Positions 1 through 30,725 of a stretch of 64,000 nt of DNA are shown here, one piece after another. Below the pieces are notes generated by a model that saw only the letters and a list, made by a program, of their open reading frames with translations, was not told where the DNA came from and did no database searches. The DNA is from Escherichia coli (GTDB lineage: Bacteria > Pseudomonadota > Gammaproteobacteria > Enterobacterales > Enterobacteriaceae), in assembly GCF_965641715.1 (NCBI RefSeq), contig NZ_OZ282453.1; one strand, written 5' to 3'. How positions within the stretch are numbered: the stretch's first letter is position 1; the number at the start of each line of letters is the position of its first letter. Made by a program: the position numbers and the translations under genes.

Positions 1-164
1 CGTATAACACAGCAGCAGGCGGACGCTGCAGATGATTATTCTGCGGTGACATATATTCATCCCTGAAATGTATTAATGAAATAAACGATATTTTACGCGC
101 AATAAATGTTTGGCGCATTAGTTGTTTGAGCGAAAAATATCTGGAAAGCAGATCACAGTAAATA

Positions 165-200
165 AAAAAACCTGCTGGTGAGGCAGGTTCTTTTATTTAC
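165..200. terminator. Hairpin (7-bp stem AACCTGC/GCAGGTT) flanked by an A-run on one side and a T-rich tract on the other; possible bidirectional intrinsic terminator
   Basis: Seen in sequence: aaaaaaaCCTGCtggtgagGCAGGttcttttattt. Confidence 0.4.
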
Positions 201-482
201 TACTTTGATGTTAAGTTACTGATACTGCAACATGGCATCTCAACGAGCGAATTATAACCACCTCGCGACCGTGTTGCAATTAAGATAATGAGATTTATAA
301 TCCTGACTGTTGGGAAGTTGCGCCGGATCGAACCCATTTCAAGTCCTGGCTACCGGACGGGTGGTGCCGCAGGTAGTGCTCTGATCCGGAGTGCAACATG
401 GCGACTCAACATACGTAAACCAGTATCGACAGGCAGCGTAAGGGTAAGGTGCTGGTGTTGCGCTCCTTAATAAGGAGAGCGG

Positions 483-572
483 ATGGACACGCTGACACAA
501 AAGTTAACCGTGCTCATTGCTGTACTGGAGCTATTAGTAGCTCTGTTACGGTTGATTGATTTGTTGAAGTAA
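483..572 (+). CDS. Small ORF encoding a 29-aa hydrophobic/amphipathic peptide MDTLTQKLTVLIAVLELLVALLRLIDLLK
   Basis: ATG preceded by AAGGAG at about 6 nt spacing; followed by a GGGGG/CCCCC hairpin at about 592-620; not in the ORF track (below its length cutoff). Confidence 0.4.
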   Translation: MDTLTQKLTVLIAVLELLVALLRLIDLLK

Positions 573-680
573 CGGGCAAATTGAAACGCATCTAAGGGGG
601 AAACCGCTTCCCCCTTTAATAAAGCTATACTCGTCATACTTCAAGTTGCATGTGCTGCGACTTGAATTATCTAGAGTATA

Positions 681-998
681 TTATTCTATTTCTTGGTTGA
701 ATATATTCTGTAGTTCACGATTAAAAATTGCTATTACAGTTTCAGGTGATTCACCTCGTAATTTCCGCTCATCAATACACTCATCTCTTATATAAATCAA
801 CGCATCATTTATTAGCGGGTCAGCATCTTCTCGATCACGTTGATGAAATGTTGGATGTAGCCGGAATCGCTCCAGTCGATAGACGGAACCTGTAAATAAT
901 TCAGAGCATTTATGGACCTCAAGTCTGAAGGAAAACGGATCTTCAGGTACAGGGACCTCATAATCGTAAATAGCAACCAGCTCTTTTTGCACGATCAT
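681..998 (-). CDS. yehK: Uncharacterized 105-aa protein, YehK-like
   Basis: Track ORF of 105 aa; position next to yehI and length match my recollection of K-12 YehK. Confidence 0.55.
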   Translation of the reverse strand: MIVQKELVAIYDYEVPVPEDPFSFRLEVHKCSELFTGSVYRLERFRLHPTFHQRDREDADPLINDALIYIRDECIDERKLRGESPETVIAIFNRELQNIFNQEIE

Positions 999-1058
999 CG
1001 CTTTCCCCGCTGGTAAGTCGTGTTGATAACGGGCAGTTGCATCACTGCCCGCTGTGTT

Positions 1059-4000
1059 TTAATGGAAAATGACGTCAGGTGCGCTTAACGCCTCACTCAA
1101 ATCAAACACATCAAGTTCGGCAAAAGTGACGGATTTATTGTCACGGTACACTCGAAGAGAACGGAAGCTCATTAGCGCTTTGCTATCAACATTGTAGTGG
1201 TTAAAACCGGGTGAAAACTTAAGGACCAGCCGGTACTCACCCAGGTCATAGACAAATGCGTCCTCATAGCCTGACTCCCAGCCTTTGTATCGCATTCCCA
1301 TAAGTTGCCCAACGGTAGCGGATTTACCTTCCCAGCGAGTCAGGCTGTTACTGGTTGACTCGTCAGGTGTGAGCAGCACCGTGCGGCGCGACAACTGGCG
1401 AAAAGGCGGCATAATTTCGTAATCGGCAAAAAGCTGTGCAAATTCACTGCGCATTTCTGCTGTCATTTCTAACGGGTGGGCAATGCCAATCAGAGCATCC
1501 GCAGGAAGGTCAATGGGCTCATCCTGCGCATTGCAGAACTCCCCCTCTGCGGCCACACGAAAGGCGTTGAGTAAACGACGCGGTTCATTTGCCGGATAAA
1601 CCCCCCATATTAATCGCTGGGTAACCAGGCGGGTAAAGGGATGATTAACAAACAGAGAATGAAAATCTGCCAGCGACCAGCGTCGGGTGGTACGTAGGGC
1701 AGCTTCAAGACGCGGGAGCAGGTTTTTGCTCACCTGAGTAGCATCTTTTTTTAGCCCTTTTAGTCGGGCCAGTGCCTCGGGCGCTTTCAGTTGATCGTCA
1801 TCGGCACGCAACCGGGGAACACTTTTCTGGCGAACGTTTTGTTGATCAAAGATAACCGGGTTGAGGTTTTCATCGAAGCGAACGGTAAACTGCCGGGGAC
1901 CAAAATCAAAAATCAACGCCTGCGGATCATCAAGACCCAGTGTTGGGACTAATCTGTCCGCTAACTCTTCCTGGCTTAGCCCGCGATTTTCTGCGACCAC
2001 CTGAAGAAATTCCGCTGCGTTTTCACGTAATGAAGAGGATTTCGCCCGTTGTGATACATGATGCAGCTGTATCAGCGCCATATCATTATTCATCAAGGTA
2101 AGTATATTCAGACCAATGACAGCACGGGCAGATTTGCCTTCTTGTGGCCAGGCGAGGATCTGTGTCGTCAGATCCCGAGCCGTGCTTTCGTCACCAAAGA
2201 GACTTAACGCCAGAAATGCCCAGTTGTCTTTTGCGGGGGCACCAGCTTGTTGCCACGCAGTGAAGAGATCCCAGGCAAAAGCGGCCAGCGTTTGTGGCTG
2301 GCAAAACGTTTTCAGTTGTTCCAGACCGCTATAAAAACGTCCGCCCTGGGTAAAGCGCAGCATTTCGCCGATAATTTCCAGAGCGTCATCGGTAACAGGC
2401 TGATTATTAGTGATAAGTCGCGGCCTGGACCACATTGCCGGATGCCAGAAATCAGGGGCTTTTGGAATGCGTGCCGGGTAAATGTCCATTGGACCCTGTT
2501 TCAGTAAATGCTCCAGGGCAGGCCATACATCTGTACGCTGCCAGCGGTTTGCCACGGTTTGCAGCAATTCACCATGTCCCTGTTCGTAAAGTAAACGCAG
2601 GGCAAGTAATGCAGCTTCGCTATTATCGCTGGATTTGGTGAAGACAAGAGGGATAAGTGCAGTAGCCGTATGTTCCGGCCAATGTAAAATCCACTGGCGA
2701 GCCAGATCACGCTGCACCGCGAAACGTCGCCAGACGCGGGCAACGGGCAGGGCCAGTTCTGTTGCGCCAAAATTTAAAATTAACGGAAATGTTTCTTTTG
2801 GACGATGTAAAAAAGCCAACATCAGACCTGGTAGCGCATCCAACCCGAGGATACTGAGAAAATAGTCCTCACCCGCGAACAGATGTTTTTTCTCATTGAT
2901 ACGCAGCCAGAAGGTCAAAGCCATCTCACGCGGCAACTGTGCCAATAAATACAGGTTCCAGACACTCTTTTCCGGACGATAACGTGAGTAGTTGTCATTT
3001 TCCCATATGTTAATTAACGCTTCTATGTGACCGCTGCGGAGCGCCTGTTCTGCTAATTGTGCTTCCGGGGAGTTCCAGCCATTCAGGATCTCTTCAACCC
3101 GCCCCTGGTAGTAATGCCACTGAACAATGAGTGAATTGCGTGCAGCATCCAGTTTTCCGGGGAGTATATAATTCAGAAACAGCCATACATCATCCCCAAA
3201 ACCCAGTTCCTGTAATACAACTCGCCCACTTTTTTGTTCCATGCGTTCCGCAAGAGATTCCGTGCTGAAATAACGGGCAGACTCAGTGGAGGCAAGCCAC
3301 TCTTGTTCGCCTGGTTGCCAGTAAACTTGCGGGGTTAATTCGAGCGGTGCCAAATCAAGACGTGGAGCTGTCATTTTTTTCTTACTACGCCACGGTGGTG
3401 AAACGAGGATTTCAGGCAGATTGCTGTTATCGGTGCCATCAATAACCGGTTTGGGCGGTGCCAATAAATAACTATTCAGTACTGCCCGGGCTTGAGTACT
3501 TAACCACTGCATCACCTCTTCTGCCAGTTGTGGCTGCGATGCCATCAGCGTTTGTAACAGCGTACGCCAGTATTCATCGCGTGCTTTTTGCTGGGCAGGC
3601 AGCTTTTTGTCTTCGATGATTGGATAACCAGGGCGGGCTGGTGGTTCTTTTAACGCCAGCAGTTCTGCCAGTGCCGCGAGCGTCGCGTGGGGGAAGTTTT
3701 TACTGTATTTAGCCACACGTTGCAGGCTGGGTTTGTTTTTATCAGCCACCAGTAGCAAGGTGTGGATGACCTGCGGATGGTTAATTTGTACCAACAGACT
3801 GCCGCAATCTTCTTTATGGGCATACATCGCGAGGCGCGGAATGGCTGCCAGTCCTTGTTCGCGCAAAAGGGCGGCGCAGGCCGCGTAGCCGAAGTGGTTT
3901 TTTTGTGACATGTAGCTGGCTTCGCGATCGCTAAATACGTCCAGGCCCCAGTATCGTTCGAGTTTTTTTACCGCCGTATTATCAGTAGCAACGACCTTTA

Positions 4001-22644: not shown

Positions 22645-22778
22645 CAACCAAACGACTCGGGGTGCCCTTCTACGTGAAGGCTGAGAAATACCCGTATCAC
22701 CTGATCTGGATAATGCCAGCGTAGGGAAGTCACGGACCACCAGGTCATTGCTTCTTCACGTTATGGCAGGAGCAAACT
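22645..22778 (+). promoter_or_regulatory. TPP (THI-box) riboswitch leader of thiMD
   Basis: Sequence ggggtgcccttctacgtgaaggctgagaaatacccgtatcacctgatctggataatgccagcgtagggaa matches the classic thiM aptamer; lies immediately upstream of the thiM start. Confidence 0.8.
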
Positions 22779-30574: not shown

Positions 30575-30725
30575 TTATACGAACAACACCACCCCGTAGG
30601 ACGGATAAGGCGTTTACGCTGCATCCGGCAACCTATGCCTGATGCGACGCTGAAGCGTCTTATCATGCCTACACAGCGCTGCCACGTATGTTTACACTGC
30701 ATCCGGCATAAAATAACGCGCACTT
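30575..30725. repeat. REP/BIME-type palindromic units (several copies)
   Basis: Seen: gcctgatgcgacgctgaagcgtcttatcatgcctac and repeated gcatccggca motifs. Confidence 0.7.

Follow-up and report, generated by a model that had tools for sequence, protein, structure and literature searches.

A zor/orz type I toxin–antitoxin module between yehL and yehK in an Escherichia coli genome

Introduction

The closest described relative of the locus treated here is zorO-orzO of the O157:H7 strain EDL933 (z3289), whose prediction dates from 2010 (Fozo 2010; Wen et al. 2014, 2017), and several papers have since dealt with the toxicity, regulation and conservation of ZorO/OrzO (PMC3919570, PMC5397157, PMC6669753, PMC11264685, PMC9860968). 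Overproduced ZorO acts at the inner membrane, where it causes depolarisation and loss of integrity, with ATP depletion, hydroxyl radicals and a stop in growth; an ALLRL segment and certain charged residues of the peptide are required (PMC9860968, PMC6669753). Rescue by OrzO depends on RNase III but not on Hfq, and also includes a block of translation by pairing with a leader region termed EAP (PMC3919570, PMC5397157). Co-variation between Orz and the zor 5′ UTR has already been described as preventing cross-talk (PMC3919570, PMC11264685).

Other systems share parts of this design. Like zorO, tisB of tisB-istR-1 encodes a 29-aa hydrophobic inner-membrane toxin, is controlled by a divergent sRNA complementary over about 20 nt to a stretch far upstream of a sequestered ribosome binding site (RBS), and fits a standby-site model with a 5′-processed active mRNA (PMC5397157); zorO differs in having no requirement for a tisA-like upstream ORF and, unlike tisAB +1, in that its full-length mRNA is still translatable (PMC5397157). 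The shoB-ohsC and dinQ-agrB pairs likewise have divergent toxin and sRNA genes, the 5′ end of the sRNA pairing with the toxin 5′ UTR (‘unconventional’ type I; PMC3919570, PMC5397157), but they have other toxin sequences and lie at other genomic sites.

Here we follow up an original prediction, made from sequence alone, of a type I toxin-like or small membrane peptide near one end of a 64,000-nucleotide stretch of E. coli DNA (hereafter the window). We conclude, with a probability of roughly 96%, that positions 164–616 hold a complete single zor/orz type I toxin–antitoxin module that would act according to the EDL933 model. The locus is genuine and its conservation is good, but such a module is already known and its presence is no discovery.

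Results and discussion

Identity and setting of the locus

483–572, plus strand: zorO coding sequence, 29 aa and a TAA stop, product identical to ZorO

The predicted 29-aa hydrophobic ORF can be read directly from the sequence and the ORF list: its ATG lies at 483–485 and its TAA at 570–572, and the 29 codons between specify MDTLTQKLTVLIAVLELLVALLRLIDLLK. This peptide is 100% identical to UniProt ZORO_ECO57, ‘Small toxic protein ZorO’ (exact-sequence look-up; at least 1,000 contigs), and exactly matches the ZorO peptide of E. coli O157:H7 synthesised by Otsuka et al. (PMC6669753), whereas an NCBIfam scan of the peptide matched no family model. Judged by its sequence, then, the ORF is zorO, the characterised E. 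coli membrane toxin gene, with the orz antitoxin gene adjoining it. The comparison with TisB-like type I toxins and small membrane proteins in the original prediction was apt, since ZorO has been shown experimentally to be a type I toxin, and the guess made from sequence alone is thus supported as right.

The unit is flanked by yehL (start near 60, minus strand) and yehK (681–998, minus strand), a site that it also occupies in O157:H7, and it is the only zor/orz copy that the window carries. The locus is 99.6–99.8% identical to that of strain PapM-32-1. In the window yehK is an intact 105-aa ORF; the annotations of FDAARGOS_1300, Nissle 1917 and an ST131 strain (our records L005, L006 and L007) give this gene as frameshifted. 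Two terminator-like hairpins on opposite strands occupy 1030–1092, between yehI (which ends at 1059) and yehK. Farther along the window, Rfam matches at gathering level mark a TPP riboswitch at 22648–22744 (plus strand, 71.2 bits) and the nucleoid-associated ncRNA naRNA4 at 30599–30669 (plus strand, 64.5 bits).

These sequence-level hallmarks of the zor/orz family are present: the toxin sequence, a divergent Orz recognised by RF02083, the promoters and RBS, the UTR and its target, the pairing, and a predicted stem over the RBS. With the EDL933 locus the window shares an identical 29-aa toxin, the promoter hexamers, the 174-nt UTR, the Shine-Dalgarno (SD)/anti-SD hairpin, the position of the Orz target, the sRNA layout (5′ seed, small stem-loop, terminator) and the yehL–yehK site next to yehK. 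The identification of the module follows from peptide identity, the match of Orz to a covariance model, the landmark coordinates, cognate-specific pairing and ORF conservation taken together, and no observation speaks against it. Although it works like tisB/istR-1, zor/orz is no member of that family, and the IstR Rfam model had no match in window positions 1–3000 at E ≤ 1; among the features that we looked at, none pointed to SOS control. Nor is the locus a member of the shoB/ohsC family: on orz, the OhsC model (RF02495) scored 33.6 bits against a gathering score of 50, a sub-threshold score that comes mainly from the terminator.

Promoters

274–279, both strands: palindromic −35 hexamer TTGCAA, common to both divergent promoters
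296–301, plus strand: zorO −10 hexamer TATAAT, 16-nt spacer from the −35 (PMC11264685, Table 3)
251–256, minus strand: orz −10 hexamer TATAAT, 17-nt spacer from the −35 (PMC11264685, Table 3)

A promoter scan of positions 1–1100 returned exactly two sigma-70-like promoters, each with 10 of 12 matches. We took +1 to lie seven nt past each −10, which gives G309 for zorO and 244 for orz. The TTGCAA and TATAAT hexamers are conserved in more than 99% of zor/orz loci (PMC11264685), and the window carries TTGCAA, TATAAT twice and, as the RBS, AAGGAG at 472–477. In the text of PMC3919570 and PMC11264685 we found no discussion of a single palindromic −35 serving zor and orz. If one such hexamer admits only one RNA polymerase at a time, initiation at zor and at orz could be mutually exclusive on each chromosome; a transcription-level toggle would then sit atop the control exerted between toxin and antitoxin RNAs. 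Separately, the A·A mismatch of the Q-type pairing described below could give a threshold for repression unlike that of the studied O pair. We offer this pair of ideas as a long shot.

The Orz sRNA

164–244, minus strand: orz antitoxin sRNA, about 81 nt, with OrzQ-like pairing class; 5′ end at 244 placed from the −10 at 256–251
226–244, minus strand: Orz 5′ seed, GUUGAGAUGCCAUGUUGCA, complementary to zorO UTR 392–410
169–189, either strand: intrinsic terminator hairpin of Orz, AACCTGCTGGTGAGGCAGGTT, with an A-run to its left and a T-run to its right, within the Rfam consensus structure

The Rfam model RF02083 (OrzO-P) matches the minus strand at 164–237 over its full length (model positions 1–76) with 88.8 bits, well above the gathering score (60), at E = 2.4e-14. 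The RNA is predicted to fold into a small stem-loop and the terminator (z = −3.1), and its U-run derives on the minus strand from the A-run at 164–170, the last two bases of which lie within the stem. The original prediction placed a bidirectional terminator-like hairpin at 165–200, and it is found at 169–189 with both flanking runs. The further suggestion that it could end a regulatory RNA holds: the hairpin terminates the antitoxin sRNA. As a refinement, Orz is divergently transcribed rather than an overlapping antisense, and no more than about 19 nt at its 5′ end contact the zorO 5′ UTR. Weak Rfam hits at 84–244 to Thr and Trp leaders and, on the plus strand, to OrzO-P were dismissed as products of the terminator palindrome. 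The introduction of PMC6669753 gives orzO as 174 nt, which is the length of the zorO 5′ UTR (PMC5397157); Orz here is about 81 nt.

The zorO leader

309–482, plus strand: zorO 5′ UTR, 174 nt, with +1 placed at G309 from the −10 ending at 301
309–336, plus strand: delta-28 segment, the first 28 nt, absent from the published translatable delta-28 form
381–410, plus strand: EAP (‘exposed after processing’), putative ribosome standby region, +73 to +102 (PMC5397157, PMC3919570)
388–393, plus strand: conserved GGAGTG motif within the EAP (motif from PMC11264685)
392–410, plus strand: Orz pairing site in the zorO UTR, TGCAACATGGCGACTCAAC, 73–91 nt upstream of the ATG
463–477, plus strand: RBS-sequestering hairpin formed by anti-SD CTCCTT (463–468), an AAT loop and SD AAGGAG (472–477)

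With +1 at 309, the window has every landmark of the EDL933 leader (UTR, RBS, EAP and Orz target) at exactly the published position. A UTR of 174 nt and an RBS at +164 to +169, as given for that locus (PMC5397157), place the RBS precisely on the AAGGAG at 472–477, and the Orz target agrees with the ‘~73-91 nt upstream’ of PMC3919570. The ‘strong Shine-Dalgarno’ of the original prediction is only half the picture: AAGGAG does stand 5 nt before the ATG, but it is predicted to be sequestered by the anti-SD. [quoted passage not shown]

Upstream, the full-length MFE fold pairs 309–330 with 382–405, the segment of the EAP and Orz target, as the published processing model needs. The partition-function folds give a mean unpaired probability for the EAP of 0.30 in the full-length RNA versus 0.25 in delta-28, that is, no net opening, so for the step in which processing exposes the EAP we rely on the structure probing reported for the allele of EDL933. 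We treat the lack of opening in the folds as a limit of the prediction and not as evidence against the model, and by analogy the translation of zorO would depend on 5′ processing and the upstream standby (EAP) region. A 60-aa ORF at 288–470 was considered as a mok-like coupling peptide and rejected, its ATG (288) lying upstream of the +1 placed at 309.

Proposed mechanism and physiological role

Because of its homology with the EDL933 locus, the module would be expected to work as follows. Transcription from TTGCAA (274) and TATAAT (296) would yield a zorO mRNA of about 310 nt with its 174-nt leader, in which the SD is locked in the anti-SD hairpin and the 5′-most 28 nt or so are paired with the EAP at 381–410. 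Loss of these 28 nt would expose the EAP, provide a ribosome standby site and so raise translation. Orz, running from 244 to 164 on the minus strand, would pair through its first 19 nt with 392–410, at the 3′ edge of the EAP; such pairing would both block loading at the standby site and trigger RNase III-dependent decay of the mRNA, thereby keeping the toxin off. Toxicity upon overexpression and RNase III-dependent rescue have been shown for the EDL933 allele, to which the protein here is identical, whereas the Orz/target class differs. For the strain and allele in hand we infer expression, 5′ processing, toxicity and repression by analogy.

A single native copy may do something else. Extra copies of zorO improve growth in aminoglycosides independently of toxicity (PMC9860968, PMC11264685), and the peptide, the RNAs or both could act as a benign small membrane protein or regulator, for example in aminoglycoside uptake or tolerance, with toxicity an artefact of overexpression. 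We think this unlikely, but it is the alternative that we take most seriously: the non-toxic R23L variant still aids growth in aminoglycosides (PMC9860968), ZorO made from its native promoter is detectable only at raised copy number (PMC9860968), and about one third of E. coli genomes keep orz without the toxin, so that Orz may have other roles. However, a single chromosomal copy is reported to bring no aminoglycoside benefit (PMC9860968), and a sequestered SD, processing of the leader and an antitoxin whose pairing co-varies by class all fit an expression that is harmful when unrestrained. The idea also concerns the physiological role only; what the element is, a zor/orz toxin–antitoxin module, stays unchanged.

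Orz:zor pairing and a third class

Class P: Orz 5′ end GUUGGAACACGAUGUUGCA; pairing with one internal mismatch
Class O: Orz 5′ end GUUGGUACGAAAUGUUGCA; continuous pairing
Third class (window): Orz 5′ end GUUGAGAUGCCAUGUUGCA; target UGCAACAUGGCGACUCAAC

The window locus differs from EDL933 in its pairing segment. In segment V1, in both sRNA and mRNA, the window has ...AUGGC(A/G)(U/A)CU... where EHEC O has ...(A/G)UUUCGUAC..., and the UTR of EHEC O is unlike that of the window at 17 of 174 positions, clustered at +90 to +98. It is in this same interval that UTR differences among the classes are concentrated, and matching changes are present in the sRNA. The arrangement differs as well: EHEC has zorP/orzP and zorO/orzO in tandem, the window a single copy.

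The predicted duplex of the window consists of 6 bp, an A·A mismatch and 12 bp including one G·U (18 pairs), whereas that of EDL933 is continuous. Pairing of the window Orz is specific to its cognate target, with duplex energies (duplexfold) of −29.8 kcal/mol for that target, −18.0 for the P target and −15.7 for the O target. Like the zorQ/orzQ locus type of Shore et al. (2024, mSystems, PMC11264685), the window locus pairs in a third way that matches neither O nor P. We infer that it belongs to a zorQ/orzQ-like class even though its protein is ZorO in sequence, having A20 where ZorQ is A20S; this assignment, rather than coming from a direct comparison of query sequences, relies on the third class in S56, which encodes the A20S protein called ZorQ (PMC11264685).

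Set against the continuous 18 nt of EDL933, the interrupted duplex might be taken to mark a decaying or poorly repressed allele. If its G·U is left out, the pairing of 6(1)12 becomes 6(2)11, near the 5(2)11 mutant that fails to repress (PMC3919570), and nt 20 of the window Orz is G rather than C, at a cost of about 2 kcal/mol relative to JNE25-005 and S56. Several observations make decay very improbable nonetheless. Interrupted pairing is standard in all Q-type copies sampled (L001, L003 and L004), and class P also has one internal mismatch, yet is widespread and found in other Escherichia species too. The cognate energy of the window is near those of the other classes (−31.3 kcal/mol for O, −32.7 for P), and promoters, RBS and ORF are intact. 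Finally, repression is reported to need 15 or more continuous bp, or 17 or more where a single internal mismatch interrupts them (PMC3919570), a length that the 18 pairs and one mismatch of the window reach provided that the G·U is counted, and 99.8% of loci were scored as competent for repression (PMC11264685).

Conservation of the reading frame

The window and 11 E. coli genomes supplied 17 zor/orz units, besides the orz-only remnant of K-12, to which we added four units from E. whittamii and two further Escherichia species, for a total of 21 units. Stop codons or frameshifts in orthologues would have spoken against the ORF, but all 29 codons are kept in 21 of 21 units (15 genomes, four Escherichia species). 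Seven of the variable sites are synonymous (at A13, L17, V19, L21 twice, L22 and R23) and three are non-synonymous (T3S, Q6R and A20S). The notion that a short intergenic frame is hydrophobic and preceded by an SD merely by chance, prompted by its small size and by the 12 other ORFs of at least 20 aa that overlap the region in other frames, has a vanishingly small probability and is ruled out by the identity of the peptide to the experimentally studied ZorO and by a frame that is invariant across the 21 units of four species, with mostly synonymous change and a cognate sRNA alongside that is verified by covariance model.

In E. whittamii (record L013, at about 12015 and about 12625), as in EHEC, a P-type and an O-type unit stand in tandem; one has the Q6R toxin variant and the other a 175-nt leader. 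The O/P duplication therefore appears, from these sequences, to predate the species splits within Escherichia. Within this small sample of 21 units, the Q class was met only in E. coli.

The downstream hairpin and an ERIC-like repeat

594–616, plus strand: perfect 9-bp hairpin after the zorO stop, probable mRNA 3′ end or terminator with a weak U-tract

The GGGGG...CCCCC hairpin that the original prediction noted at about 592–620 is real: its arms, 594–602 (AAGGGGGAA) and 608–616 (TTCCCCCTT), are 100% complementary around a 5-nt loop. A terminator scan made no call for this hairpin, TTT alone following the stem. We retain it as the probable 3′ end or terminator of the zorO mRNA because the stem is conserved; both EHEC copies (O and P) and other Escherichia species keep it, with changes in the loop.

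Past this hairpin, 626–680 forms a 55-bp palindromic element with 25-nt arms that are 80% complementary. In FDAARGOS_1300 the same two arms flank an insert of about 150 bp that contains GTAAGCTCCTGGGGATTCAC, which we take to be the ERIC1R primer sequence. The window thus appears to carry a short ERIC-type repeat: a search for the ERIC core with the ERIC2 primer sequence matched nothing in the window, and the long form is present in FDAARGOS_1300. Such a repeat explains why one search gave a median of 5 matching places per genome versus 1 in the search with the unit, and also explains a weak isrH Rfam hit.

The same element marks the boundary of the K-12 remnant. MG1655 (L011, 890–1120, compared with window 150–700) retains a P-type orz, both promoters and some 35 nt at the start of the zor leader. 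From there to the right arm of the ERIC-like element it has no homology to the window, so the deletion that removed the toxin ends inside this repeat.

Distribution and significance

Among 5,426 complete E. coli genomes, 3,393 (about 63%) hold at least 80% of the 416-bp zor/orz unit, and about 1,840 more, K-12 included, have only the orz half; this count agrees with the published figure of more than 30% of strains that are orz-only (PMC11264685). About 1,090 of the 5,426 match the window unit at 95% identity or better, a band within which every Q-class copy sampled falls (97.4–98.1%). A scan of species representatives with an exact 20-base pattern, which reports exact matches only, placed the unit in three other Escherichia species.

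Twelve RefSeq E. coli records (PGAP; L001–L012) lack any annotation of zorO or orz, and no feature lies under the locus. To call the ORF unannotated is thus correct for automatic pipelines, given these records and the lack of an NCBIfam model, but published work describes the gene thoroughly. This amounts to a systematic annotation gap for a gene that about 63% of complete E. coli genomes carry. Working from the raw letters alone, a sequence-only reader correctly picked out a genuine type I toxin as well as the terminator that belongs to its antitoxin. The Q pairing class is the least studied of the three, and the window allele could be used to test how the specificity of Orz for zor evolves.
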